From: Candidatus Micrarchaeota archaeon
Lineage (GTDB): Archaea > Micrarchaeota > Micrarchaeia > Norongarragalinales > UBA97
Assembly (NCBI GenBank): GCA_016194335.1
Contig: JACQBR010000008.1
Location: 864-64,863 of the forward strand
DNA length: 64,000 nt
Direction: 5' to 3'
Numbering within the stretch: position 1 is the stretch's first letter; each line of letters starts with the position of its first letter. Below the pieces are notes generated by a model. It was not told the origin of the DNA. It did not search any database and worked only from the letters and a program-made list of their open reading frames with translations. A program made the position numbers and the translations under genes. Below, one piece after another: positions 4,792 through 56,870 of the stretch.

Positions 4792-7700
4792 ATGGTTAAC
4801 GACGTAAAGGATTTGGAAGAGCTTGTGAATTCCGTCTTGCCCCCCCAGTGCGAGCTTTCAAAAATAGAGCTCGAAGGCCCCCAGGTTGTGCTTTACCTCA
4901 AGAACATGCACGCGTTCTACGCCGACGTTAACCTCATCACGCGAATCGCTTCGAAAGTCCGCAAGAAGGTGCTCGTTCGTTCCGATTCCTCCATCCTAAT
5001 GCCTCCCGAAAGGGCGAAGGAAAAGGTCGCCGGCCTCATTCCCCCCGAGGCGGGAGTGAAGGAAATCCGTTTCGACCCGCATTTCAACGAGGTGCTCATC
5101 GAGGCCGCAAAGCCCGGGGTGGTAATCGGCAAGGGCGGAAGCGTGCTGAAAAGCATCACGCTCACCACCGGATGGTCCCCCCGCGTGCTCCGCGCGCCCA
5201 CGATGCCTTCCGAAATTGAGACTGCAATCCGAAACGCACTGCTTGCGGGCTCGGAGCAAAGGAAGAAATTCCTAGGGGTTTTTGGCAAGAGGATGCTGGG
5301 CGCCCCGGCCGCAACCGAGTGGGTGAAGATGACCGCGCTGGGAGGCTTTCGCGAAGTGGGCCGCAGCTGCTTTCTTTTGCAGACCCCGAAGAGCAACGTG
5401 ATTGTCGACTGCGGGCTCAACATCGACACCAGCGACGCCACGCGCGCCTATCCCTATCTCAACGCAATGGGGCTTTCGCTTGAGCAGATTGACGCGGTCA
5501 TCCTTTCGCACGCGCACCTCGACCACTGCCTCCATCCGGATTCCCTCATCCAGCTTGCAAACGGCGAAATAAGCAGCATTGAAGATTTGGCAGAACACGG
5601 CGGGGACGTCGTTTCTTACGATTTCGTTTCCGGCGCAACTGCAGGCGCTGTTGCAAGCAAGGGCGCTACTCAAAAGCCGGAAATGCTCAGGATCAAGACC
5701 AATTTATTCAGCATCCGCGCCACGCCAGAACACCGCTTTTTCGTCGTCAACGGCCTTGACGTGAGGGAAAAGCGCGCGGGAGAGCTGCGCGAGGGCGATT
5801 TCGTGGCGGCGCTGCGTTCAAGCAAATTCGAGGGAGCGGCAAACCAGCCTCTGCCCTTGGTGAAAGTGCAGGAGCTCGCTTTCATTTCGGGGGAAGGCAG
5901 GCTGAAAATGCGCCAAACGCGCGAGTCGTTCAAGCTGACCCGCAAGCAGGTTGCAGCAATTGCCGGAGTGCCGGCATGCCAATACGCATGGCTCGAATCG
6001 GGCAGGCACAAGCCGTCGAGGGAAAATTTGCAGAAATGCCTGCAGGCGCTGGGCCTGAAAACTCAGGATTTTGGGAATGAGGTTTCTGCAATCAAGTCGG
6101 CCGAGTTGCCCAAATTTTCAAGTGAGGAGTTCTGCCAGTTTTTGGGCTACGTCCTCGGCGACGGGAACGCGCACTATCAGGCGCACGATGCCAATTGCAA
6201 TGATTTGGCCGTGACGGACAAGGACGTGGCGAACCTCGAGTTTTACGCCCAGCTTGCAGAAAGGGTGTTCAATACAAAGCCGCGCTTTTCGCTCAAGGCG
6301 GGAACAAATGGCGGGAGAAACCGGGTGTTCTTCTCGTCCTACGTGACGAAGCTGATGTTCGCCTTGGACAAAGGGATTATTTGCCGCAGCCGCCAGCGCC
6401 GCGTACCCAAAATGATTCAGCGTGCGTCCAACGCCGAACTGGCCGCTTTCTTCCGCGGGCTTTTTGACGCCGAGGGGTCCGTGGGCCACCACTCGGTGAG
6501 GCTGGTCTCTTCAAGCGAGATGCTCTTGCGCGTGGCGCAGATGCTTCTATTGAGGCTGGGCGTGCAAAGCTGCATTGAAGAGCGCAAGGCGGTTTCGCAA
6601 AAAGCATTCTCCAAAGAGCCGTTCTACTGCCTTGCCATCACCCATCCCCGGTCGCTTTACGCATTCGGGGAGAAGATAGGCTTCTCATCAGAGGCGAAAT
6701 TGCAGAAATTCAAGGCGATGGCCGCCACCGTAGGCAATGCGCGCTCCGGAAAGGTTGACCTAATACCGATTGACGGTGCGGCGCTTAGGGCCGAATTGGC
6801 GGATGCGGGGTTGTTCGAAACCGATTTCGACTCCAGAATCTCCCGTTACTGGAACTGGAGCCACGCGCCGAGCAGGGAGGCAGTTGATGGAATCTGCGCG
6901 GGAATCGAAGCGCGTTTGCAGCTGCTGAAGACGGCTTCATCGCGGCAGGAGCTGCGAATAACGCAAGGGCAGGTCGGAAAGGCTTTGGGAGTGGACCAGT
7001 CGGTAGTTTCGGCAATCGAGCGCGGCAGAATCTCTTCGTGCAGCATTATCTACCGTGAGACGCAGGAGTTTTTGCACCTCTCCAGAGAAACCTGCATTTC
7101 AAAAGCGGAGCAACTTCTTCTCAAGTTGCGGATGCTCGTCTCGCAGGAGCTTGCGTGGGTGAAAATCAAGTCGATTGAAAATGAAACCCCGCCGGAGAAG
7201 GTTTACGACCTGAGCGTCCCCGGTTACGAGAACTTCGTTGCGGACGGTTTTGTCGTGCACAACTCCGGTTTCATCCCCTACCTCTACGCCTACGGCTACG
7301 AAGGCCCGGTCTACTGCACGCCCCCCACGCGGGACATGATGGTGCTTCTCCAGCAGGACTGCGTGAACGTGATGAATAGCGAGGGCGGCAAGGCCCCTTA
7401 CGGCGAGAGGGACATCAAGAAGGAGCTCATGCACGTGATCACCCGCGAGTACGGAGAGGTGACCGACGTGACGAGCGACATCCGCTTCACCTTCCACAAC
7501 GCGGGGCACATGATTGGAAGTTCCATCGTGCACATCCACATCGGCGAGGGCATGCACAACCTCATCTACTCCGGCGACATCAAGTTCGGCCGCACGAAAC
7601 TCTGCGACACCGCATCTACGCAATTCCCCCGCGCCGAGACGCTGATGATAGAGGCGACTTACGGCGGGCGCAACGACATCAAGCCGCGAATCGAGGATTG

Positions 7701-8424
7701 CGACGCGAAGCTCTCCGAAATCATCCGCACCGCAACCGGCCGCAGAGGCAAGGTCCTCATTCCCGTCCTCGCCTCTGGCCGCGCGCAGGAGCTGATGCTC
7801 ACGCTTGAGGAGCAGTTTTCCAACCCCGACTTCACCGTCTATATGGACGGCATGAGCCGCGAGGCAAGCGCAATCCACACTGTATATCCGGAATACCTGC
7901 GCCGCAACATCCAGCGCCGCATCCTGCAGAACGACTCGCCTTTCGACAAGCCGATGTTCAAGAACATACAGAACAACGACCACCGCAAGGCCATTGCCGA
8001 GTCGGACGAGCCCGCTGTGATTCTCGCGCCAAGCGGGATGCTCACCGGGGGGCCCAGTGTCGAGTTCCTCAAGCTGCTTGCCGACGACGCGCGCAATTCC
8101 CTCGTATTCGTGAGCTACCAGGGCGCACTCACGCTGGGCCGCAGGCTCCAGCAGGGGGAGAGGGAAGTGCCGGTGCTCAACCGCGCGAACAAGCAGGACT
8201 CGCTGAAGATTAACATGGCCGTGCAGAGCATCGAAGGCTACTCCGGCCACTCCGACCGCTCACAGCTCGTCGCGTGGACGCGCAACATCCGCCCCAAGCC
8301 CTCGCGCATCTTCACAATGCACGGCGAGGAAGGAAAGTGCGAGGAGCTCGTGCGCACGCTGGGCAAGATGCTCCACGTCCAGACGCAGGTGCCGATGAAC
8401 CTCGACAGCATCAGGCTGAAGTAG
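4792..8424 (+). CDS. aCPSF1/FttA (KH plus metallo-beta-lactamase plus beta-CASP ribonuclease), interrupted by a 579-aa intein
   Basis: N-terminal KH domains. MBL motif HAHLDH is followed directly by Cys. The extein resumes SGFIPYLYAYGYEGPVYC... The extein is 631 aa, a typical aCPSF1 length. Confidence 0.9.
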   Translation: MVNDVKDLEELVNSVLPPQCELSKIELEGPQVVLYLKNMHAFYADVNLITRIASKVRKKVLVRSDSSILMPPERAKEKVAGLIPPEAGVKEIRFDPHFNEVLIEAAKPGVVIGKGGSVLKSITLTTGWSPRVLRAPTMPSEIETAIRNALLAGSEQRKKFLGVFGKRMLGAPAATEWVKMTALGGFREVGRSCFLLQTPKSNVIVDCGLNIDTSDATRAYPYLNAMGLSLEQIDAVILSHAHLDHCLHPDSLIQLANGEISSIEDLAEHGGDVVSYDFVSGATAGAVASKGATQKPEMLRIKTNLFSIRATPEHRFFVVNGLDVREKRAGELREGDFVAALRSSKFEGAANQPLPLVKVQELAFISGEGRLKMRQTRESFKLTRKQVAAIAGVPACQYAWLESGRHKPSRENLQKCLQALGLKTQDFGNEVSAIKSAELPKFSSEEFCQFLGYVLGDGNAHYQAHDANCNDLAVTDKDVANLEFYAQLAERVFNTKPRFSLKAGTNGGRNRVFFSSYVTKLMFALDKGIICRSRQRRVPKMIQRASNAELAAFFRGLFDAEGSVGHHSVRLVSSSEMLLRVAQMLLLRLGVQSCIEERKAVSQKAFSKEPFYCLAITHPRSLYAFGEKIGFSSEAKLQKFKAMAATVGNARSGKVDLIPIDGAALRAELADAGLFETDFDSRISRYWNWSHAPSREAVDGICAGIEARLQLLKTASSRQELRITQGQVGKALGVDQSVVSAIERGRISSCSIIYRETQEFLHLSRETCISKAEQLLLKLRMLVSQELAWVKIKSIENETPPEKVYDLSVPGYENFVADGFVVHNSGFIPYLYAYGYEGPVYCTPPTRDMMVLLQQDCVNVMNSEGGKAPYGERDIKKELMHVITREYGEVTDVTSDIRFTFHNAGHMIGSSIVHIHIGEGMHNLIYSGDIKFGRTKLCDTASTQFPRAETLMIEATYGGRNDIKPRIEDCDAKLSEIIRTATGRRGKVLIPVLASGRAQELMLTLEEQFSNPDFTVYMDGMSREASAIHTVYPEYLRRNIQRRILQNDSPFDKPMFKNIQNNDHRKAIAESDEPAVILAPSGMLTGGPSVEFLKLLADDARNSLVFVSYQGALTLGRRLQQGEREVPVLNRANKQDSLKINMAVQSIEGYSGHSDRSQLVAWTRNIRPKPSRIFTMHGEEGKCEELVRTLGKMLHVQTQVPMNLDSIRLK
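5527..7263 (+). mobile_element. Intein (579 aa) with a LAGLIDADG homing endonuclease and an HTH domain, inserted in the aCPSF1 MBL motif HAHLDH|SG
   Basis: Begins with Cys (CLHPDSL), ends with ..VVHN and the +1 residue is Ser. Internal LAGLIDADG blocks FLGYVLGDGNAHY and FFRGLFDAEGSV. HTH segment LTRKQVAAIAGVP. Confidence 0.85.
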
Positions 8425-9999: not shown

Positions 10000-10122
10000 A
10001 CTCCTTCCCTTCCCAACCCGGTTTTTCCCAGGTTCTTCCCAAAGTTGCCCTCCTTTCCTCTTTAACCTTTTTTCCCCCATTTACCGCTTCTTTTATTTAC
10101 CGTCCATTCCCTAATCGCCTCC

Positions 10123-10644
10123 ATGAAAAAACTCCTTTCCCGCGCCCGTGGGCGGCTCAAAAAGCCGCTTGGAAGGCTGCTGGACAAAAGACAGGCAGCC
10201 GCGTTTTTGGAAAGTTGCAAAAAGCACAAGCCGTTCCTCGTCACTGTCGGCGACGCAACCACCGGCCTTGCGCTGGGGCGCGGGATTTCTCCCTCCGTCT
10301 CGGTTGTCGACCTCAAAATCGCGAGGGAGAAAGTCGAAGCCCACCACGTCAAGCAATTGCTTCTTGCCGGCGCGGTGCTGCTTGAGGCTAAAAATGCGCC
10401 GGGAACAATCTCGGTTGAATCGGAGAAGAAAATTGCAGAGGCAATAAAATTTTCAAGGAAGGGGAAGAAGGTAATCCTGCTCATTGACGGCGAGGAAGAC
10501 CTCCTAACCCTGCCCGCAATCGTTTCCGCGCCCGTTGGCGCGCTCGTGCTTTACGGCCAGCCGGGTGAGGGGCTGGTGGCGGTTGAAGTCACTGCGGGGA
10601 AGAAGGGGGAAATCCGTAAAATTCTCGGCACGGGATTCGGCTGA
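10123..10644 (+). CDS. DUF359/COG1909-like protein, possibly a GTP-dependent dephospho-CoA kinase
   Basis: Roughly 170 aa with a basic N-terminus, PFLVTVGDATT and LIDGEEDLLTLPA blocks. The family assignment is from memory, not verified. Confidence 0.35.
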   Translation: MKKLLSRARGRLKKPLGRLLDKRQAAAFLESCKKHKPFLVTVGDATTGLALGRGISPSVSVVDLKIAREKVEAHHVKQLLLAGAVLLEAKNAPGTISVESEKKIAEAIKFSRKGKKVILLIDGEEDLLTLPAIVSAPVGALVLYGQPGEGLVAVEVTAGKKGEIRKILGTGFG

Positions 10645-11340
10645 TTACCGCCTGCCCTTTCCCTTCTGCGCCTTTTCCATCTCGCCTGCCATCTGCAGGG
10701 TGATTACGTCGGTGGGAATGGCGTCCTCCTTCTTGAGGCCGAGCTTGGCAACCAGCTCGTAGGCGCGCTTTTCGCTCCTTTCCCGTTGGTGGACGAAGTT
10801 CGTTGCCGGAAGCGCAACTTCGAGAAAATCGCCGAACTCTTCGATGGAGAAGGCTGCGAGCGGGATTTCAAGCGAGGCGAAGCGCCAGACGGTGTATTCG
10901 CGGGCAAGCGCCTCTTCGTAGCCGAGTTCCTGGAGGTCTTCCATCATCTTGTACGCGCTTGTCACTTCAAGGCCCAGCTTTTCCTCCTCTTGCACCATGT
11001 ACGTCTCCGCAACGACGGTCTCCTCTTCGGTCTTCCTGTCCGTGCGCACGAGAAGGTAGGAGAACACGCCTTCGCCGAACTGCTTGGCGTGCACCACTTC
11101 GGAATACTCCCCGCCCCCGAGGAACTTGGCGTGCACTTTCTTCTCAAGGAGCCCCACCGTCTCTTCCGCGTCTTGCAGCGGGAAGGAAAGCCTCGCTTCG
11201 GGAAGCTTCCACTTGAGCTTGTGCTCCTTGCCCAAAGTTTTTTTCCTCACTCCCGCGAGCCTGTCAAGCGCGTTGAGGAGGGGGTTGGCGTCAATCATGT
11301 TCAAACATCTCTTGCAACAGGCGCACTTATGGCAAACCAA
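10645..11340 (-). CDS. CYTH-domain (triphosphate tunnel metalloenzyme) protein
   Basis: N-terminal HKLKWKL resembles ExExK. C-terminal ...FSIEEFGDFLEVAL matches the CYTH GxFxEIE motif. The true start may be the Met at 11298. Confidence 0.5.
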   Translation of the reverse strand: MVCHKCACCKRCLNMIDANPLLNALDRLAGVRKKTLGKEHKLKWKLPEARLSFPLQDAEETVGLLEKKVHAKFLGGGEYSEVVHAKQFGEGVFSYLLVRTDRKTEEETVVAETYMVQEEEKLGLEVTSAYKMMEDLQELGYEEALAREYTVWRFASLEIPLAAFSIEEFGDFLEVALPATNFVHQRERSEKRAYELVAKLGLKKEDAIPTDVITLQMAGEMEKAQKGKGRR

Positions 11341-11376
11341 GAAAGTCTTGCGGCAGTCTTATCTCGGTTTGCAACT

Positions 11377-11420
11377 AGCGGATTGCAATGTGGCATTCGC
11401 ATTACTTTTGCAATCCGCTA
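11377..11420. promoter_or_regulatory. Perfect 13-bp inverted repeat (tagcggattgcaa / ttgcaatccgcta) with an 18-nt spacer
   Basis: Lies between the truD 3' end and the CYTH gene 5' end. Could be a terminator or an operator. Confidence 0.4.
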
Positions 11421-11468
11421 TAAGTATTGAGGAAGCCTGACTAATTAAAAAGCAGCATCACCCCCGAT

Positions 11469-12749
11469 TTAAGGCCCGGCCTTTGCATCAATCTCCGAAG
11501 TTTGGCCACCAAGCAGAAACTCGAGGGCGGCGGTGGCATAGGCGCCCGGGGGCAGGCTGAATTTCAGGAGCACGGCGTTTCCCTCTTGAATTGTTTTGGC
11601 CTCAAAGCCCTTGATGGGAATGAATTGGGCGCGCAGCGTCCCCCTGCTGGCAAGCTCGGGCATCGGCGGCGTGGCGAAGTCCTCCTGCGCAACCCCCTCG
11701 TCGTGGAGGATCTTCCGCTCCAGTTCGTCCAGCTTCGATTCCGTGCCAATGAGGCTTGCGGCAATGAATGCCTTCCCGTCCGCAACCAATGCGCCAATCG
11801 CCTCAGCCTCCTCCCTGTTTTCAATTGTTCTAAACTCGGCGCTTGGAAAGCCGGTTATGGGACTTGCGTTGAAGTAATGGGCGCCCACTGCCGGAGACGC
11901 AATGCCGCGTTCAATCCTTTGCCTCAGGGCCTGGTTGAACAGTTTCGCCTCGAAGGCGTTGACGAACATCAGCTCAAGCGGCCGCGGGAGCTTCCGGATG
12001 GCCCCTACGAAATCAGTGGGGTTCCTCGCAAGGTGGGAGAGCATCATCCGTTCAAAGCGCAGGTGCTTGGGAAAGGCCGAGGCCGCCTTCCTGAAGTCCT
12101 TGCCCGTTGAAAGCTCCTGCCTTGCCCTCACGGCAGCCTCGTTCCTCTCCCCCTGCGTGCCGCAGAGGTATTCCATCGCCGCGGCCTCGAAGTCGCCCTT
12201 GAGCATGAGCCTTCCTACTTCGGCGGTGTTTCCCCTGCTGCCGAACCTCTGGCCCCCGAAAAAGTTAGGCACTACAAAACCGAATTCCTCCGCCCTTTTG
12301 CAGATGGCGCAGGCATCCGGCTCCACTCCGCAATTCCCCCGGTTGAGGGTGATTTCAAACCGGTTGCCCCCCACCGCGCCCAGCTTCACTTTTTCCCGCG
12401 CCTTCCACGCGCCGTTGATTGCAATGTCCTTCACGCGCGTTGCCGCCGCGATGAGGCGCCCGGGCTCGAGGGTGAATGCGCTTGCGAGCTGCACGCTTGT
12501 GGAGTTGCGGTCCTTCGTGCCGGCGAAGTCGAAGCGCCTCCTTGAAACTCCCGCCGCGCGCGCGAGGGCGTCGAGGGCGTCGGTGGTGTTCCAGCCCCGC
12601 TTTTGGAGGATGAAGTGGCAGAAATAGTCCCGCTCGAGGGCCTGGTCATCCTCCCTGCCGAGGGAGAGGGGCTTTCCCAGTTCGAGCAGCGTGCCGTTTG
12701 GCGTGATTTCCTCGACGATGAATTCCTCTGGAGAGAAGTTGAAGCGCAT
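11469..12749 (-). CDS. truD: tRNA pseudouridine synthase TruD/Pus10-like (Psi13)
   Basis: FAGTKDRNSTSVQ and FGGQRFG motifs. Start set at MRFNFSPEEF; the upstream 32 codons of the ORF-track are probably not translated. Confidence 0.8.
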   Translation of the reverse strand: MRFNFSPEEFIVEEITPNGTLLELGKPLSLGREDDQALERDYFCHFILQKRGWNTTDALDALARAAGVSRRRFDFAGTKDRNSTSVQLASAFTLEPGRLIAAATRVKDIAINGAWKAREKVKLGAVGGNRFEITLNRGNCGVEPDACAICKRAEEFGFVVPNFFGGQRFGSRGNTAEVGRLMLKGDFEAAAMEYLCGTQGERNEAAVRARQELSTGKDFRKAASAFPKHLRFERMMLSHLARNPTDFVGAIRKLPRPLELMFVNAFEAKLFNQALRQRIERGIASPAVGAHYFNASPITGFPSAEFRTIENREEAEAIGALVADGKAFIAASLIGTESKLDELERKILHDEGVAQEDFATPPMPELASRGTLRAQFIPIKGFEAKTIQEGNAVLLKFSLPPGAYATAALEFLLGGQTSEIDAKAGP

Positions 12750-13163: not shown

Positions 13164-14861
13164 TTATCTGTATCGAAGGAACGCGCCGATGCCCTTGAAC
13201 GTTCCGTAGAACTGGTCGCCCTCTGCCGTTTCGCGCGATATCATCTCAACCACCACCCCCCTCTCCTCTGCAAGGCCGATGATGTCGTTGATGAGGTCCG
13301 TCTCTTTCTCAATCCTGAACTTTCCGCTCTTGCACTCGCTGCAGTCCTCCATGTGGGCGTTGTTGGTGCTTTGGATGGTCTTGGAAAAGCCGCACTGGCC
13401 GCACTTGAGCTGCAGTTCGTAGAGGTTCTGGTTTTCGCTTACGAGAAGCATCTTGGCCTGGTTGGCCTCAATTGCCTTTTTCACGTTGCCGTAGTTGGAG
13501 ACCACGAGCCCGCCGCGCACCGCCTCCTTGAGGAATTCGTCAAGAAGCTTCTTTTCCCTCACCGCCTCCTGCTCTGAAATCAGGTCCGAGGCCTTCTCCA
13601 TCACTTCCCTAAGGCCGTACTCGTCGGTATAGCCCGTGTCGACGATGCCGAGAATCTTGAGCTGGTAGTTGAACGGCGCGGCCTTCACCAAATCCTCCTT
13701 CGCCGGCCCCGGCCCTCCGACAATGACGCCCTTGAAGTTCTTCACCTCCAGAAACGCCGCCATCGCCTCGCCGATGCGCTCCTGGAAATACTCGATTCCC
13801 TCCTCGCGCAGCCGCGAGAAGCGCTGGGATGAGTTGTGCGCGACAATGCCGTTTGCGATGAAGTTCTCGTTCCCGGGTATTTCGAGGTCGTAGAAAAATG
13901 CCGTTGGATTGCGAATCACTTGAATAAAATCGATGGGGGAAATTGAGAGCTGGGAGAGAAGGGAGATTGAAGAGGTTGAGGCATTTTCCGCCGTAGAGTG
14001 GTTTAAATTCCCTTTTGAAAGCAGGCGTTCGCCGACGCTGAGGTCTTCTGCAAACCTTTCCCTCACCCTGCCGTTTTCGGAAACGAAGAAGCGGTGCTCT
14101 TTGGTGGCAATTATTTCTCCGCCGTTTCCAGTCTTGATTAGGAGCGCATCGTCAGAATTTCTCGCAAAAACATTGATGCATTCCTGTTCTTCAAATAGCT
14201 GGGTTTTCCAGTTGAACGAGAGCAGTTTATCTCCTGGCTTAACTTCCCGAATTTCCTTTATTTCCCCGCTGGCCATTTGCACCAACGTTTTTTCATGGAG
14301 GCACTGTCCACCTTTATGAGTCTTGGCATGCGCGGTCGAGTGGATTTGCTTGATGACTTTTATGTTCTTGCCCTTGAGCACCGCCACGGTCGCTTCCTTG
14401 CCGTCCATCACCACCAGCCCGTAAGCGCCGCTGTGCTCCACAAGCTCCTCAAGCGGCTCGAGGACGAAAGTGGATTCGCAGCGGTAGAACTGGGCGTTGA
14501 GGGGAACGGGCGGGACGATGGAATAGAGCTGCAAATCCTGCCTCCCTTCGGTTTCGGAGAGGTTGCCGCAGAAAATCGCCATTCCCGTCTTTGGCGTTTC
14601 GCGAAACGTCTTGAGGTACTGCACTATCTTTTCCAGCGCGGCAATCACGTTCTTGCGCGTGGAGGTGCTCTTGATGTTCGTCGCCGCGCCGGCCTCTTCC
14701 TTGAGCTTGCCGGCAATCTCGCTGATGGGATAGCCGGGAGTCATGTACACGCTGATGAGCTCGGTTCCCCTGCCCCGGAATTCCCTAAGCGACTTTATCT
14801 GCTTCTTGAACTCGTAAATCTCCCTGCTCTTCTGCGAGGAGAGGTCAGCACTGATTGCCAT
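13164..14861 (-). CDS. prf1: Peptide chain release factor aRF1, interrupted by a 157-aa mini-intein
   Basis: eRF1 domains. TAHAKTHKGGQ is followed by Cys, and the extein resumes SSQRFSRLRE. C-terminal zinc ribbon CGQCG...CSEC. Confidence 0.9.
   Translation of the reverse strand: MAISADLSSQKSREIYEFKKQIKSLREFRGRGTELISVYMTPGYPISEIAGKLKEEAGAATNIKSTSTRKNVIAALEKIVQYLKTFRETPKTGMAIFCGNLSETEGRQDLQLYSIVPPVPLNAQFYRCESTFVLEPLEELVEHSGAYGLVVMDGKEATVAVLKGKNIKVIKQIHSTAHAKTHKGGQCLHEKTLVQMASGEIKEIREVKPGDKLLSFNWKTQLFEEQECINVFARNSDDALLIKTGNGGEIIATKEHRFFVSENGRVRERFAEDLSVGERLLSKGNLNHSTAENASTSSISLLSQLSISPIDFIQVIRNPTAFFYDLEIPGNENFIANGIVAHNSSQRFSRLREEGIEYFQERIGEAMAAFLEVKNFKGVIVGGPGPAKEDLVKAAPFNYQLKILGIVDTGYTDEYGLREVMEKASDLISEQEAVREKKLLDEFLKEAVRGGLVVSNYGNVKKAIEANQAKMLLVSENQNLYELQLKCGQCGFSKTIQSTNNAHMEDCSECKSGKFRIEKETDLINDIIGLAEERGVVVEMISRETAEGDQFYGTFKGIGAFLRYR
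13833..14303 (-). mobile_element. Mini-intein (157 aa, no endonuclease domain) inserted immediately after the GGQ motif of aRF1
   Basis: CLHEKTL...IVAHN with +1 Ser. Removing it restores GGQSSQRF, which matches the consensus GGQSA.RF. Confidence 0.85.
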
Positions 14862-46321: not shown

Positions 46322-49300
46322 ATGAAGGTCATTGGTGCGATTGAGTTCGGCGTTTTCTCCCCCGAGCAGGTGCGCAAGATGTCGGCCGTGAAGATCACCG
46401 TGCCCGACACTTACGACGAGGACGGCTACCCCATCAACGGCGGGCTTGCCGACCAGCACCTCGGCGTCATCGACCCGGGCCTGCGCTGCAAGTCCTGCGG
46501 CGGCCGCATGAAAAGCTGCTCGGGCCACTTCGGCCACATTGAGATGGTGCGGCCCGTCATCCACGTGGGGTTCGCAAAGGCCGTTTACCACCTGCTCAAG
46601 GCGACGTGCCGCAAGTGCTCCCGCCTGCTTGTCGAGGACAGCACTTTTGAGAAGCCCAAGAAGGCCGCGGTCTGCCCCCACTGCGCCGAGCAGCAGGGCG
46701 CGATAAAGTTTGTCAAGCCCACGAGCTTTTTCGAGGACGTGGGCGGCAAGGAAAGGAGGCTTTTGCCCAACGAAGTTCGCGAGAGGATGGAGCACATTTC
46801 CGACGAGGACCTCAACACCCTCGGCGTGAAAATCAGGCCCGAGTGGATGGTCCTTACCGTCCTCATCGTCCCTCCGGTCACCGTGCGCCCCAGCATCACC
46901 CTTGAGACGGGCGAGCGCAGCGAGGACGACCTCACCCACAAACTCGTGGACGTGCTGCGCATCAACCAGCGCCTCGGCGAGAACATCGACGCCGGCGCCC
47001 CGCAGCTCATCATCGAGGACTTGTGGGAGCTTCTCCAATACCACGTCGCGACTTTCTTCGACAACGAGACCGCAGGCATCCCGCCTGCAAGGCACCGCAG
47101 CGGAAGGCAGCTCAAGACGCTCTTCCAGCGCCTCAAGGGCAAGGAAGGCAGGTTCCGCTACAACCTTTCGGGCAAGCGCGTGAACTTCAGCGGCCGCACC
47201 GTCATTTCCCCCGACCCCACCCTCGGCATCAACGAGCTCGGGGTTTCCGAGCACATCGCAAGGGAGCTTACAGTCCCGATTTTCGTCACCGAATGGAATC
47301 TCGAGCCCATCAAGGAGCTTGTCAAGGGCCATCCGGAAAAAATCAATTACGTCATCCGCCCCGACGGCAAGCGCAAGAAGCTCATCGGCCTCAACATCGA
47401 GGAAGTGACGGCGGAAATCGTCCCCGGCTACACTGTGGAGCGGCAGCTTATGGATGACGACATCGTGATTTTCAACCGCCAGCCCAGCCTCCACCGCGTG
47501 AGCATGATGGCCCACCACGTCAAGGTCCTTCCGGGAAAGACTTTCCGCTTCAACTCCGCCGTCTGCAAGCCGTACAACGCCGACTTCGACGGGGACGAGA
47601 TGAACATCCACGTTCCGCAGAACGAGGAGGCGCAGGCCGAGGCGGAAATCCTCATGAAGGCCCAGGAGCAGATCCTCTCCCCCCGCAACGGCGAGCCCAT
47701 AGTAGTTCCCGAGCTCGATCAGATTTCCGGCCTTTACATGCTTACCGCCAAGGGCGTGGAATTCCCCCGTTCGGAAGCGGCGATGATGCTTTCCCGCGCC
47801 GGCGTCAACGACGCCGAGTTCAAGGGGGAGAAGGTTTCAGGACGGGAAATCCTCTCCGCGATTCTCCCCAAGGAATTCGACTTCGAATGCGCCAGCCTCG
47901 CGTTCCACCAGAAGTGCAAGGAGTGCCCCGGGGGCAAGTGCGCCGAGCACGACTCCACCGTAGTGGTGAAGAACGGCAAGTTTTTGCGCGGCCATCTCGA
48001 CGGCCGCTCGAGCGACAAGCTCGTCCGCGCGCTATTCAAGGAATTCGGAAGCGACGCGGCGGCGAAATACCTCGACGCGGCAACCAAGATTTCCGTCGAC
48101 GTTGCCACCGACTTCGGCATCTCCCTCTCGCTTGACGACTACGCCATTACGGACAAGACCCGCGGGGAGCTCGGCGAGCTTTACCTCACGGCGCACAAGG
48201 GGGTGCGCAAGCTCATCCAGAAATACCGCATGAAGAGGCTCGCGCGGCTGCCCGGCAAGACGCTCAAGGAGACGCTGGAGGAGCAGGTGATGGACATCCT
48301 CGAGGCGGTTCGCCACGACGCGTGGGGCATAATCAAGACCCACGTGCGCAAGCACCCCGTGAAGTTCGGCGGGGCGGAAATAATGCACAACTCCGCGCTT
48401 CTCATGGCCGACTCCGGCGCGAGGGGCAAGCCCATCAACGTCGTGCAGATGGCTGGCATCGTCGGCCAGCAGGCCGTGCGCGGAAAGCGCATGCGCTCAG
48501 GGTACAAGGGCCGCATCCTTTCCCACTTCGCAAAGGGCGACCTTTCCGACCTCGCGCGCGGGTTCGTGCGCGACAGTTACGTCCGCGGCCTTTCCCCCCA
48601 CGAGTACTTCTTCCACGCCGCAGGAGGCAGGGACAGCGTCGTTGACAAGGGAGTCAACCCCGCCAAGACGGGTTACATGCAGCGCAGGCTCATCAACGCC
48701 CTTCAGGACATCGTGGTGCAGAAGGACCTCACCGCAAGCGACGCGGAGGGGAAAATCATCCAGTTCAAGTACGGCGACGACGGGATGCACCCGGCGGGGA
48801 ACGCCGTGGCATACGGCGAGCCCGTGGGAGTGATCGCGGCTCAGAGCATCGGCGAGCCCGGAACGCAGATGTCCATCCCTTCGGGTGAAAAAGTGGTCGT
48901 AAGCATTGACGGCGCGATGAAACCCGTGGCAATCGGGGAGTTCGTGGACGGGCTCATCGAGAAGCATGGCTCGATCAAAATAGGCGGGGCTTCGGTTGTG
49001 GACCTTCCCCAAAGCGCAGGCATTTGCGTCCCCAGCCTCTCGCAGGAAGGCAAGGTTGTTTTCAAGAGGCTCATTTCCGCCAGCAGGCACGAGTGCGGAA
49101 AGAAAATCCTCGAGATAACCACGCGTTCGGGAAGGAAAATCCGCGCGACCGACAACCACTCCTTCGTCATCCGCAAGGACAACAGAATCATTCCCGTCAT
49201 GGGAAGTTCCCTCAAGGTCGGCCAGAGGATTCCCGTTGTCAAGTCCATGCCCTCCCCCGCACTGTTTGCCCAAGGTGCCGAGAGCCTTGATTTGCAGCAA

Positions 49301-51334
49301 CACCTTCCAAAGAGCACCCACTGGTTTGGAAGCGAACTCAAAAAGGCGCTTGCGCCGGGCGTGATAAGCCGCGCGGGCCACAATGTTTCGTACACTATTC
49401 CCGTGGGCGCGGATGCGTTAAGGCACTACGCGGGGCATGGGAATTCATTCGAAATCGAGGACGGCTTTGTCTATCCAGTGCAGAACCACGGCAACGCGAG
49501 GATTCCCGAATCAATGCCCCTCGACTCGAAATTCGGCTGGTTTGTCGGGGCCTACCTTTCCGAAGGCAGCCTGAGCAGGTACAACGTGGGCATTTCAAAC
49601 ACTGACTCCGAGTTCATCGCAAGGACGAAGGGATTCGCCGACTCCCTCGCGCTCAAATACGCGGAGAAGGCCAACAGCCGCGGCTTTGCCTTGGGCAACG
49701 GCCTTACCATCAATTCAACCCTGCTTTCCGAACTGTTGCAAAAGACCTGCGGCAAGGGCTCGTCAAGCAAGCGCGTTCCTGAATTCGCCTTCAGCGCAAA
49801 CGAAAAGTTCATCTCATCGCTTCTTTCGGCGTATTTCGATGGCGACGGCAACGTGACGATGGAGCGCAATGCGATTCGCGCCTCTTCCAACTCGAAGGAA
49901 CTGATTGACGGGGTTGCACTGCTGCTCTGCAGGCTTGGCATCTTCTGCACCAAGCACTTCGCTTCGGGCCAGCACTGCCTCTCCATTCCGGGGGCGTACG
50001 CAAACCGCTTCAGGGAGAAAATCGGCTTCGTGTGGGCCAAGAAGTCTTCCTTACTTGGGAAACTTTGCACCAAGGAAACCAAGCGCATCTCTTACGACAT
50101 TCTCGACATGAAAGTCGGGTTCGGAAGCGTGATAGGCGACGCCGCCAGGAAGCTCGGAGTGCCCTCCCGTTTGGTCAGCAAGTTCACCAAGAAGCAGGAA
50201 ATCGGCGTGAAGACGCTTGCGAAATACGTTGACAAGTTCGGGGAACTCTCGCGCCAAAATAGCATCAACGTGGATAAAGAGCTTTCCGTAATGAAAGCCA
50301 TGCTTGAGGAAGACGTGGCGTGGGACGAGATTGTCGAGGTGAAGTTCGTCGACTCCACGCCCCTGGTCTACGACTTTTCCGTCGAGGGGCTCGAGACGTT
50401 CGCCACCTTCGACGGCGTGATTACGCACAACACGCTGCGCACCTTCCACTACGCCGGAGTCGCCTCGCTCGCGCAGCTCGGCTTCACCCGACTGGTGGAA
50501 ATCGTCGACGCGACCAAGAAGCCGAAGAGCCCCGTGATGGAAGTCTACCTTCGCAAGGAGCTTTCCAAGGACTTCGAGAAGGTCAAGAAGTTCGCCGCTT
50601 CTCTTGAGCAGCTCACGCTGGAGCAGGTTGCCGATGTGAGGGAGAATTTCGACCGCAAGAGCATCCGCGTCACCTGGGACGAGAAGTCGCTTCACGACAA
50701 GGCGGTGAAGGAAGACGAGATTTTCGAGAAGGTCAAGCTCGTCGCCCCCGCGGAGAAGACCCAGACTGGAATCACCGTCCGCCCCAAGGCAGACAGCATC
50801 CGCAACACCCGCAAGATCACCAACAAGCTTCGCGAAATCATCCTGCGGGGAGTGGCGAACATTTCCCGCGCCATCATCATCGAAAAGGCAGGGGAGTACG
50901 TCGTGGCGACGGAAGGGAGCAACCTCGAAGGCTTGCTGAAGATTCCCGAAGTGGACTCCTCGCGCACCACCACCAACGACATTACCGAAACCTACCACGT
51001 GCTCGGGGTGGAGGCCGGCCGCAACTCCATAATGAACGAGATGCTCAAAGTGCTCACCGCCCAGGGGCTCAAGGTCGACGCGAGGCACATCATGCTCATT
51101 GCCGACTCGATGACCTCCAAGGGCAAGCTCACTTCAGTCGGAAGGCACGGCCTTGCGGGGGAGAAGAGATCCGTCCTCGCGCGCGCGGCCTTTGAAGAGA
51201 CTGCCAAGCACCTCCTCAACGCCTGCATCAAGGGCGAGGAAGACCCCCTTCAGGGAATTGCCGAGAACATCATCATCGGCCAGACCATCCCCTGCGGGAC
51301 GGGCAAGGTCAAGCTCGAGATGACCATTGAGTAG
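46322..51334 (+). CDS. rpoA: DNA-directed RNA polymerase subunit A with the A' and A'' portions fused in one ORF, interrupted by a 520-aa intein
   Basis: Rpb1 zinc ribbon and the NADFDGD active site lie in the N-terminal part. GEPGTQM is followed by the intein, then TLRTFHYAGVA of the A'' region. There is no stop codon between the A' and A'' regions. Confidence 0.9.
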   Translation: MKVIGAIEFGVFSPEQVRKMSAVKITVPDTYDEDGYPINGGLADQHLGVIDPGLRCKSCGGRMKSCSGHFGHIEMVRPVIHVGFAKAVYHLLKATCRKCSRLLVEDSTFEKPKKAAVCPHCAEQQGAIKFVKPTSFFEDVGGKERRLLPNEVRERMEHISDEDLNTLGVKIRPEWMVLTVLIVPPVTVRPSITLETGERSEDDLTHKLVDVLRINQRLGENIDAGAPQLIIEDLWELLQYHVATFFDNETAGIPPARHRSGRQLKTLFQRLKGKEGRFRYNLSGKRVNFSGRTVISPDPTLGINELGVSEHIARELTVPIFVTEWNLEPIKELVKGHPEKINYVIRPDGKRKKLIGLNIEEVTAEIVPGYTVERQLMDDDIVIFNRQPSLHRVSMMAHHVKVLPGKTFRFNSAVCKPYNADFDGDEMNIHVPQNEEAQAEAEILMKAQEQILSPRNGEPIVVPELDQISGLYMLTAKGVEFPRSEAAMMLSRAGVNDAEFKGEKVSGREILSAILPKEFDFECASLAFHQKCKECPGGKCAEHDSTVVVKNGKFLRGHLDGRSSDKLVRALFKEFGSDAAAKYLDAATKISVDVATDFGISLSLDDYAITDKTRGELGELYLTAHKGVRKLIQKYRMKRLARLPGKTLKETLEEQVMDILEAVRHDAWGIIKTHVRKHPVKFGGAEIMHNSALLMADSGARGKPINVVQMAGIVGQQAVRGKRMRSGYKGRILSHFAKGDLSDLARGFVRDSYVRGLSPHEYFFHAAGGRDSVVDKGVNPAKTGYMQRRLINALQDIVVQKDLTASDAEGKIIQFKYGDDGMHPAGNAVAYGEPVGVIAAQSIGEPGTQMSIPSGEKVVVSIDGAMKPVAIGEFVDGLIEKHGSIKIGGASVVDLPQSAGICVPSLSQEGKVVFKRLISASRHECGKKILEITTRSGRKIRATDNHSFVIRKDNRIIPVMGSSLKVGQRIPVVKSMPSPALFAQGAESLDLQQHLPKSTHWFGSELKKALAPGVISRAGHNVSYTIPVGADALRHYAGHGNSFEIEDGFVYPVQNHGNARIPESMPLDSKFGWFVGAYLSEGSLSRYNVGISNTDSEFIARTKGFADSLALKYAEKANSRGFALGNGLTINSTLLSELLQKTCGKGSSSKRVPEFAFSANEKFISSLLSAYFDGDGNVTMERNAIRASSNSKELIDGVALLLCRLGIFCTKHFASGQHCLSIPGAYANRFREKIGFVWAKKSSLLGKLCTKETKRISYDILDMKVGFGSVIGDAARKLGVPSRLVSKFTKKQEIGVKTLAKYVDKFGELSRQNSINVDKELSVMKAMLEEDVAWDEIVEVKFVDSTPLVYDFSVEGLETFATFDGVITHNTLRTFHYAGVASLAQLGFTRLVEIVDATKKPKSPVMEVYLRKELSKDFEKVKKFAASLEQLTLEQVADVRENFDRKSIRVTWDEKSLHDKAVKEDEIFEKVKLVAPAEKTQTGITVRPKADSIRNTRKITNKLREIILRGVANISRAIIIEKAGEYVVATEGSNLEGLLKIPEVDSSRTTTNDITETYHVLGVEAGRNSIMNEMLKVLTAQGLKVDARHIMLIADSMTSKGKLTSVGRHGLAGEKRSVLARAAFEETAKHLLNACIKGEEDPLQGIAENIIIGQTIPCGTGKVKLEMTIE
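48872..50431 (+). mobile_element. Intein (520 aa) with a LAGLIDADG homing endonuclease, inserted at GEPGTQM|TLRTFH of RpoA''
   Basis: Starts with Ser (SIPSGEKVVV), ends VITHN with +1 Thr. Internal LAGLIDADG blocks GWFVGAYLSEGSL and LLSAYFDGDGNV. Confidence 0.8.
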
Positions 51335-54647: not shown

Positions 54648-56870
54648 ATGGCACGAAAGGAAGTTGTCGTCGACGAAGTCGTCCGCCTCATGGGCGCGCG
54701 GGAATACATCCGCAACATGGGCATAGTCGCGCACGTGGATCACGGAAAAGGCTAAAGCCACATTGCGGGCTTTGCTTACGGTCAGACCACGCTGAGCGAC
54801 TCTCTCGTAGCAGTAGCGGGGCTCATTTCCCGCGACCTGGCCGGGGAGCAGCGCGTGCTCGATTACGACCCTCAGGAGCAGGCGCGCGGAATCACGATCA
54901 AGGCCGCGAACATCTCCCTTGGGTTCAACTACGAGAACCAGGATTACATCATCAACATGATTGACACTCCCGGCCACGTGGACTTCGGCGGCCACGTCAC
55001 GCGCGCCATGCGCGCCGTTGACGGCGTGATTCTCGTCATTGACAGCGTGGAGGCCATCATGCCGCAGACAGAGACGGTGCTGCGCCAGGCGCTCAAGGAG
55101 AAAGTGCGCCCCGTGCTCTTCATCAACAAGATAGACCGGCTCATCAACGAGCTCAAGCTCGACTCGAAGGGGATGCAGGAGAGGTTCCTCAAAATCATCA
55201 GCGGGGTGAACAAGCTCATCGCCACCTACGCGCCCGACGAGTTCAAGCAGGAGTGGCAGCTCAGCGTGGAAAAGGGCAACGTGGCTTTCGGAACCGGCTT
55301 TCACAAGTGGGCCGTTTCGTACCCCATCATGAAAAAGACGGGAATGAACTTCAAGGAGCTTTACGACTTATGCGCCGCTGACAACCACGCCGAACTGCGC
55401 AAGAAGGCGCCGCTTGAGGAAGTCATTCTCGAAATCGTCGTGAGGAACCTCCCGTCGCCCATCACGGCGCAGAAATACCGCATTCCCGTCATCTGGCACG
55501 GGGACAAGGGGAACGCGTGGGGCAGGGGAATGCTCACCTGCGACCCGAAGGCGCCCGCCTGCTTCATGGTAACGGCGGTGCAGGTGGACGAGCACGCCGG
55601 CGAAGTGGCAATCGGCCGCCTCTACTCCGGAACGATACGGAAAGGGACCGAACTCTATCTCGCGGGCCAGTTCAAGAACCAGAAGGTGCAGAGCGTCGCG
55701 ATTTACATGGGCCCCGACCGCGTGCTCGTGGACGAAGTGCCTTCGGGCAACATCGTCGCCGTCATCGGGCTCAAGGACGTGTTTGCAGGCGAGACGGCAA
55801 GCGAAGGCCAGATGGACGCATTCGAAAAGATCAAGCACCACTCCGTGCCCGTCGTGACCAAGAGCGTGGAGGCTAAAAACCCCCGCGACCTCGTCAAGCT
55901 CATCGAAGTCCTACAGAAATTGGGCAAGGAAGACCCCACCATCCGGGTTGAAATCAACCAGCAGACGGGCGAGCACCTCATTTCCGGAATGGGTGAGCTG
56001 CACCTCGAAATCATCGAGTACAAGATTGCCAAGGAAAGGGGCGTGGAGATCGAGACGTCCCCGCCGATTGTGGTCTACCAGGAGGCCGTCCTCGAGCGCG
56101 GGCCCGAGCTTGAGGGCAAGTCGCCGAACAAGCACAACAAGTTCAAGCTCGAAGTGATGCCTCTTGAGGAAGGCGTGCGCAAGGCCATCGAGGAAGGCAC
56201 GATTGACGAGCGCACGAAGGGCAAGGAGCTTGTCGAGAAGCTCATCGCAGCGGGGCTGGAGCGGGATGAGGCGAAGAAAATCATCTGCATCCACCGCGAC
56301 AACATCTTCATCGACGCGTCGAAGGGAGTGCAGTTCCTCCAGGACATCAAGGAGCTGCTCATCCAGGCTTTCGAGGAGGCCGTCGAGCAGGGGCCGCTTG
56401 CCAAGGAGAAAGTCGTGGGGCTAAAAGTGCTTCTCAACGACGCGGTGATCCACGTCGACCCGGCCCACCGCGGGCCCGCGCAGGTCTTCCCCGCAATCAA
56501 GCGCCCGCTCTACGCAGGCATGGTCATGGCGAAGTGCGTGCTTTTCGAACCCAAGCAGAAGCTCGTGGTCAACGCTCCCGCCGAGTACATGAGCAACATA
56601 ATCCAGAGCATCCAGGGAAGGCGCGGGCAGGTGCTTGACATCGCGCAGGACGGCGAGCTCATCAACGTGACGGCCAAAGTCCCAGTCGCCACCATGTTCG
56701 GCTTTGCCTCCGACATCCGCGGGGCGTCGCAAGGCCGCGCCGCGTGGTATTACGAATACGCCGGTTACGAACAGCTGCCCTCGAGCTTGCAGGGACCGAC
56801 GATCGCGGCCATCCGCAAGCGCAAGGGCGAGAACGAAACCCCGCCGACGGCGAAGGACTTTCTGGACTAA
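54648..56870 (+). CDS. fusA: Elongation factor 2 (aEF-2), interrupted by a 36-nt in-frame insertion (54750..54785) that carries a TAA stop
   Basis: [34 protein letters not shown], then the insertion encoding [11 protein letters not shown], then [12 protein letters not shown].... Deleting exactly 36 nt restores the consensus G1 motif AHVDHGKTTLSD. Everything downstream through [11 protein letters not shown] and the C-terminus is EF-2. Confidence 0.85.

Follow-up and report, generated by a model that had tools for sequence, protein, structure and literature searches.

How does an archaeon come to carry an extra domain in the very loop with which its release factor must act, and what becomes of that domain? 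The question is raised by a 64-kb stretch of DNA from a Candidatus Micrarchaeota archaeon (64,000 nucleotides (nt) of contig JACQBR010000008.1, assembly GCA_016194335.1; hereafter the window), in which the gene for the release factor aRF1 is interrupted in frame, directly after the codons of its GGQ motif, by an insert of 157 amino acids (aa). Taking sequence comparison and structural modelling together, we consider it highly likely that this insert is a genuine class-1 mini-intein, and one competent to splice.

The insert in the aRF1 gene

The host gene occupies 13164..14861 on the minus strand, as an open reading frame (ORF) of 565 aa plus stop, and its product is identical to the NCBI entry HY095_01650, a 'hypothetical protein' of Candidatus Micrarchaeota archaeon. 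It is an aRF1: two stretches matching the NCBIfam equivalog profile for aRF1 (TIGR03676) flank the insert, at 397.7 bits against a cut-off of 234.7, the Pfam families eRF1_1, eRF1_2 and eRF1_3 are all found in the ORF, and the protein carries NIKS (aa 62), YxCxxxF in the form YRCESTF (aa 126) and GGQ (aa 184-186). NIKS and YxCxxxF are the motifs of stop-codon recognition, and the GGQ loop of eRF1/aRF1 must reach the peptidyl-transferase centre on the ribosome. The N-extein (aa 1-186; 14304..14861, minus strand, as are all features of this gene) comprises domain N, with YxCxxxF and with NIKS encoded at 14667..14678, and the first part of domain M; its last residues are GGQ (codons 14304..14312), Gln186 being the -1 extein residue. 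The C-extein (aa 344-565 plus stop; 13164..13832) opens with Ser344, the +1 nucleophile (13830..13832), and continues through the remainder of domain M into domain C, which contains a zinc-ribbon insert.

Between the exteins lies the insert (aa 187-343), running from Cys1 to Asn157 at 14303..13833 and splitting aRF1 exactly between GGQ and SSQRF, in frame. The ORF reads ...TAHAKTHKGGQ, then CLHEKTL...IVAHN (Cys187 to Asn343), then SSQRFSRL from Ser344. A first-pass annotation of the window had proposed an intein at 13833-14303, directly after GGQ, and its exact coordinates and sequence are confirmed here. The Pfam family Intein_splicing (PF14890) matches residues 196-343 with an E value of 3.5e-16 (59.8 bits, cut-off 35.8), while the NCBIfam profiles intein_Cterm (TIGR01443) and intein_Nterm (TIGR01445) score 34.6 against a cut-off of 15.6 and, marginally, 25.3 against 24.5. 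No endonuclease family (LAGLIDADG, HNH or GIY-YIG) was detected in the 157 aa by the profile search, as the first-pass annotation had also claimed; in its stead is a 30-aa Ser/Thr-rich linker (intein aa 96-125; 13929..14018), at which relatives carry some 345 extra residues and which would mark the site where an endonuclease module was lost. A LAGLIDADG remnant within the linker was considered and is not claimed, the alignment being forced there and the region being of low complexity and low pLDDT.

The first-pass annotation had further pointed to Cys1, a terminal HN and a +1 Ser as intein signatures, and had called for an alignment to intein blocks. All three are present, and invariant in the homologous aRF1 inteins, and the alignment identifies block A (Cys1, codon TGC, 14301..14303), block B (T67-K-E-H70, of the form TxxH, 14094..14105), block F (Asp139, 13887..13889) and block G (His156-Asn157, CAC AAC, 13833..13838). 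Across the 181 aRF1 inteins gathered, C1, H70, D139, H156 and N157 are 100% conserved; the 19 mini-inteins that were aligned (that of the window and 18 others) share these residues and F73 without exception, and T67 at a level of at least 90%. Ser always stands at +1 after HN in the intein-bearing aRF1s examined, and the same Ser also follows GGQ in intein-free alleles. Class 3 inteins have no nucleophile at position 1 and carry a Trp-Cys-Thr triplet in blocks B, F and G; this class was rejected, since Cys1 is present and invariant and block G ends in HN.

An AlphaFold model of the insert, built on the mini-intein alignment, has the HINT fold (mean pLDDT 92, pTM 0.84) and is uncertain only at residues about 101-120, within the linker. 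The top 50 Foldseek matches of this model in the PDB are inteins or BIL or Hedgehog HINT domains, with TM scores of up to 0.81. It might be argued from the BIL2 and Hedgehog structures among these matches that the insert is an autoprocessing domain of one of those types, which would cleave without ligation and leave aRF1 as two fragments, and Pfam Hint and PT-HINT do return matches. Those matches, however, are below threshold (29.1 against 29.7 for Hint, PF01079; 24.7 against 27.7 for PT-HINT, PF07591), whereas Intein_splicing is well above its own; the junction is a canonical HN/S (a slash marking the splice point here and below) with an invariant +1 nucleophile, and what lies on either side is a single essential protein in two halves, which adjoin each other in empty alleles. 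We therefore regard a BIL- or Hedgehog-type domain as extremely improbable, and return to the mini-intein. In a model of the whole precursor, the aRF1 domains and the HINT module fold as separate, confidently predicted modules with low-confidence residues (180-184) between them, and the helix that follows GGQ begins at the +1/+2 residues.

The window intein is also compositionally foreign: its GC content is 47.6% against 57.2% in the exteins, and at third codon positions 56% against 80%. The full-length intein of P0004, at the related locus L038, is likewise GC-poorer than its exteins (43.7% against 51.3%).

Empty, mini and full alleles of the GGQ site

When the 157 aa are removed in silico, a 408-aa aRF1 with the junction GGQSSQRF results, which aligns without gaps to intein-free aRF1s of other Micrarchaeota (73% identity to P0011, 72% to P0012). 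The junctions in intein-free relatives read GGQSAARF, GGQSSARF or GGQSSQRF, so the sequence that excision had been said to restore is one that occurs naturally. At one intein-free locus (L037) the GGQ-coding site reads AAAGGCGGCCAA/AGTGCC. The order PPDK ... SerRS, an ORF of 204-210 aa, aRF1 and an 83-aa ORF is common to the window and L037, while at the full-intein locus L038 PPDK ... SerRS is followed directly by aRF1 and an 84-aa ORF, the 204-210-aa ORF being absent. The aRF1 gene is thus met with a mini-intein, with a full intein and empty in a common gene neighborhood, which argues that this is one orthologous locus and not an extra paralogue; no tandem second aRF1 was found near the gene in any locus fetched. 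These observations bear on the reading in which the insert is a decayed intein, no longer splicing, in a redundant or dying copy of aRF1. The loss of the endonuclease and the low complexity of the linker would suit such decay, as would the fact that our view of the genome is limited to the window, but the frame of 565 codons is unbroken, the five catalytic positions and the +1 Ser are all intact, NIKS, YxCxxxF and GGQ are retained, the exteins are gap-free and close to those of intein-free orthologues, and synteny places the gene at the orthologous locus. Decay is accordingly very unlikely, and a functional intein remains the better account.

Related aRF1s, which the first-pass annotation had wished to see compared for presence or absence of the insert, provide empty, full and mini versions at the identical site. 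Among the best 120 aRF1 homologues, 61 are intein-free (GGQ/S), and in the other 59 that bond is occupied by an intein (GGQ/C...HN/S). Most of the occupied alleles (42 of the 59) hold full inteins of 432-577 aa, all with LAGLIDADG and most with a helix-turn-helix (HTH) of the XRE type; the other 17 hold mini-inteins of 139-217 aa. Such variation between close relatives, confined to a single peptide bond, speaks against an ordinary lineage-specific loop or domain that the mature protein would retain. A retained loop is favored by nothing more than there being an insertion at all: the HINT fold and the catalytic residues are present, intein profiles score above threshold, and a 157-aa globule at the tip of the GGQ loop is difficult to square with entry into the peptidyl-transferase centre. 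Of all the explanations weighed here this one is the least credible, and we continue with the mini-intein.

The closest full inteins (P0004, P0006 and P0009) align with that of the window from end to end, except for about 345 aa at the linker that make up an HTH and LAGLIDADG module. In a tree of the splicing domains the mini-inteins are interspersed with full-length ones, which suggests that the endonuclease was lost several times independently. Starting from a distant member, a second search yielded another 120 proteins, named by their sources as Aenigmarchaeota, Woesearchaeota and Nanoarchaeota, and every one has an intein at the GGQ site. Judged by the sequences gathered, aRF1 inteins are a large and well-populated family across DPANN archaea, spanning at least four DPANN phyla.

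The class-1 splicing pathway is established intein chemistry, and the residues present in the insert allow us to infer how it would proceed here. The 565-aa precursor would be translated as one chain. Cys1 would then attack the Gln186-Cys187 bond in an N-to-S acyl shift, assisted by Thr67 and His70 of block B, and the hydroxyl of Ser344 at +1 would attack the resulting thioester by transesterification to give a branched ester. Asn157 (Asn343 of the precursor) would cyclise to a succinimide, aided by His156 (His342) and Asp139 (Asp325), freeing the 157-aa intein, and an O-to-N shift would finally produce a native Gln186-Ser344 bond in a 408-aa aRF1 that reads ...KGGQSSQRF.... Because the GGQ loop must enter the peptidyl-transferase centre, a precursor with a 17-kDa HINT domain at the tip of that loop should be inactive, and termination in this cell would consequently depend on splicing. 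Such dependence may be the reason why the splicing residues are intact and perfectly conserved, even in mini-inteins that are immobile.

The same arrangement invites an alternative in which the intein serves as a post-translational switch, with splicing conditional on redox state, temperature, substrate or the state of the ribosome, and is kept for that benefit; the cell, or a DPANN symbiont answering its host, might in this way tune its supply of active release factor. An insertion in the catalytic loop necessarily places activity under the control of splicing, endonuclease-free mini-inteins persist in several lineages with their catalytic residues intact, and documented cases of conditional splicing exist among other archaeal inteins, that of RadA for one (summarised in PMC5874633). 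However, a selfish element in an essential gene predicts intact splicing residues equally well, and the intein is absent from about half of the close relatives. No conserved redox partner was found either: the second cysteine, Cys42, was considered as a partner of Cys1 and rejected, its column identity being below 80% across the 181 inteins. On balance we think a switch unlikely, although less so than the other alternatives above.

The preferred reading, of a selfish element that became immobile, would have the following history. The ancestor was probably a homing intein whose HTH and LAGLIDADG endonuclease targeted the GGQ-coding DNA of empty alleles, a step suggested by the domain content of the relatives and by the pattern of presence and absence. 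In the lineage of the window the endonuclease module would have been deleted at the usual linker position, leaving an intein that is now immobile and vertically inherited, and that may survive only because its imprecise loss would destroy an essential gene. Several points weigh against this account. Support for splicing comes entirely from sequence, conservation and modelling, and the inactivity of the precursor is deduced from where the GGQ loop acts. For the full-length relatives, both the activity of the endonuclease and its target specificity are likewise read from domain content. In addition, the genome is seen over only about 64 kb and a second, uninterrupted aRF1 may lie elsewhere, though synteny argues that the copy described here is the orthologous one.

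Release factors without the catalytic Gln, and other interrupted genes

The first-pass annotation had described GGQ as universally conserved, which is not strictly so, as many aRF1 genes of Aenigmatarchaeota encode GGW or GGM. In an exhaustive search of representatives, 9 of 14 intein-carrying aRF1s lacked Gln at -1 and read KGGW/C, KGGM/C, KGGF/C or KGGS/C. These proteins score 270-451 bits on TIGR03676, and NIKS and YxCxxxF are retained wherever the entry covers that part of domain N. In 120 relatives of one of them (P0158), position -1 is held by Q about 66 times, by M about 28 times and by W about 24 times, and once each by Y and F. The GGW form is encoded GGC GGA TGG on a 464-kb JGI contig, adjoining genes for ribosomal proteins, and seven contigs encode this same protein. 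Further examples, all from outside the window, are found at L001 (gene 10001-12739), L003-L016, L021 and L022 and in P0158, P0268-P0281, P0290-P0349 and other entries. Intein-free genes show the same substitution: in GTDB genomes, 27 such Aenigmatarchaeota aRF1 genes read KGGWS (15), KGGMS (1) or AGGQS (11), and those with W or M reach 473-487 bits on TIGR03676 and cluster together by extein similarity. Since W or M is thus present in 16 of 27 genes that have no intein, loss of the Gln appears to be a trait of the lineage, independent of the intein.

Three other explanations of the Gln-less genes were considered and rejected. The proteins are not Pelota or other paralogues, given 270-487 bits on the equivalog profile and the two retained recognition motifs. 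A shifted intein boundary that restores GGQ is disfavored because Gln is unable to serve as a +1 nucleophile and is missing from the vicinity in some copies, and an adaptation to the intein because the 16 intein-free genes also read GGW or GGM. Most Gln-less Aenigmatarchaeota genes read GG[WM]SQ, and a few are without that second Gln too. The sequence matches the GGxSQ motif described for release factors of the VLRF1 type by Burroughs and Aravind (PMC6514570). No paper on a GGW or GGM aRF1 was found in the literature searched. From these sequences there appears to be a coherent clade of Aenigmatarchaeota with GGW or GGM (rarely GGF, GGY or GGS) in place of GGQ, in which a second, GGQ-bearing factor is possible.

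The window holds three inteins, those of aRF1, FttA and RNA polymerase subunit A. The FttA/aCPSF1 ORF (4792..8424, plus strand) carries a 579-aa intein with HTH_3 and LAGLIDADG at 5527..7263, directly after the metallo-beta-lactamase motif HxHxDH (HAHLDH/C...HN/S); FttA at the syntenic locus L037 is intein-free, with 631 aa. Like the aRF1 mini-intein, that of FttA starts CLH..., ends ...NF[IV]A.G.V.HN/S and sits at a catalytic motif, and identity between the two is 32% in the N-terminal splicing domain and 54% in the final 26 residues; unlike the mini-intein, the FttA intein keeps its endonuclease module, has another host and is nearer to its host in GC. RNA polymerase subunit A is encoded by a single ORF of 1670 aa (46322..51334, plus strand) with Rpb1 domains 1-5, A' and A'' not being separate genes. 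Its intein (48872..50431; 520 aa, with LAGLIDADG) starts with Ser, in the context GEPGTQM/SIPSGEK...ITHN/TLRTFHYAG, and is less close to the aRF1 mini-intein than is that of FttA. In the representative library, an aRF1 homologue of 1452 aa (P0196) has GGQ/C at residue 696-699 and an extra ...VHN/C at residue 638, which suggests that the intein at the GGQ site is preceded by another intein or by a long N-terminal extension.

A different kind of interruption is seen in the EF-2 gene (54648..56870, plus strand), where the P-loop AHVDHGK/TTLSDSL is broken by 36 nt with an in-frame TAA. The insert lies at 54748..54783, with boundaries that are ambiguous by up to 2 nt and may extend as far as 54750..54785. 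In the set of 80 relatives fetched, EF-2 runs through this point without a break in about 70, and in seven a true intein occupies precisely the same bond. The RNA has a predicted minimum free energy of -31.7 kcal/mol (z = -3.0), and in its predicted fold an exon-exon helix is followed by a 2-nt bulge, a helix of 4 positions, a 3-nt bulge and an intron hairpin, an arrangement resembling a bulge-helix-bulge. The exon-exon duplex amounts to -21.1 kcal/mol, whereas the 70 scored relatives that have no interruption give -5.7 +/- 2.65, and the predicted cuts at 54747/54748 and 54783/54784 restore G-K-T-T. The best reading is probably a mini-intron of the bulge-helix-bulge type in the mRNA, and the insert may otherwise reflect a pseudogene or an assembly error. 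By reasoning, translational bypass of the gene-60 type and deletion between direct repeats were both set aside, as either would give GKGQTT or GQTT in place of the P-loop GKTT.

Relation to known inteins and meaning of the GGQ site

The nearest relatives of the window intein are the full-length Micrarchaeota aRF1 inteins already mentioned (P0004, P0006 and P0009; 498-503 aa), which share its host protein and bond. The splicing domain of P0009 is 56% identical to that of the window, other full-length Micrarchaeota relatives being at or below this value; they differ in having the HTH and LAGLIDADG module where the window intein has its linker. Closest among solved structures are the Pyrococcus CDC21-1 (MCM) inteins PhoCDC21-1 and PabCDC21-1 (PDB 6rpq and 6rpp; Foldseek E ~1e-11, TM 0.81; phmmer E 3e-9 against PDB sequences). 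These are class-1 archaeal HINT domains with a similar C-terminus (...NF[IL]ANGI.VHN), but only 24-25% identical to the window intein, hosted by the MCM helicase and inserted at another site. The Ssp and Npu DnaB mini-inteins (PDB 1mi8, 6frg and 4o1r) are also endonuclease-less members of class 1, similar in size and identical in fold (TM 0.77-0.79), but are bacterial, reside in the DnaB helicase and share 23-26% identity. The Mtu RecA intein is also among the Foldseek matches, below CDC21-1.

The main text of the archaeal survey by Novikova et al. 2016 (PMC4760082) tabulates inteins in the P-loop of aIF2/IF-2 and in RNA polymerase A'', which resemble the aRF1 intein in lying at the most conserved motif of an information-processing protein. 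According to that text core translation components hold few inteins, and no release factor is named there as an intein host. In full-text searches, in intein reviews and in the same main text, we came across no account of an intein hosted by aRF1 or eRF1. The earlier supposition that this insertion site had not been catalogued thus stands as far as the literature searched is concerned, but not for the sequence databases, in which the allele is common and some copies are already called 'eRF1/intein/homing endonuclease' by the JGI pipeline. At NCBI the same proteins are named 'hypothetical', 'LAGLIDADG family homing endonuclease' or 'helix-turn-helix domain-containing protein'. The aRF1 intein is, then, an apparently undescribed allele in a new host protein, with a known mechanism.

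Given that this mechanism is standard, the biological surprise is moderate. If splicing were conditional after all, termination and stop-codon read-through would come under post-translational control, and this would be the first natural intein to gate termination. Whether or not that is so, aRF1 adds a translation-termination factor to the hosts of inteins, and an insertion right after the catalytic Gln shows about as clearly as any example how inteins home to those codons of essential genes that are under the tightest constraint. For the organism itself, current NCBI names hide its release factor. For protein engineering, the family is a source of small inteins that lack an endonuclease by nature and have a Gln(-1)/Ser(+1) junction, and, with all stages of the homing cycle represented at one site, it constitutes a natural data set for the gain of inteins, the decay of their endonucleases and their loss.

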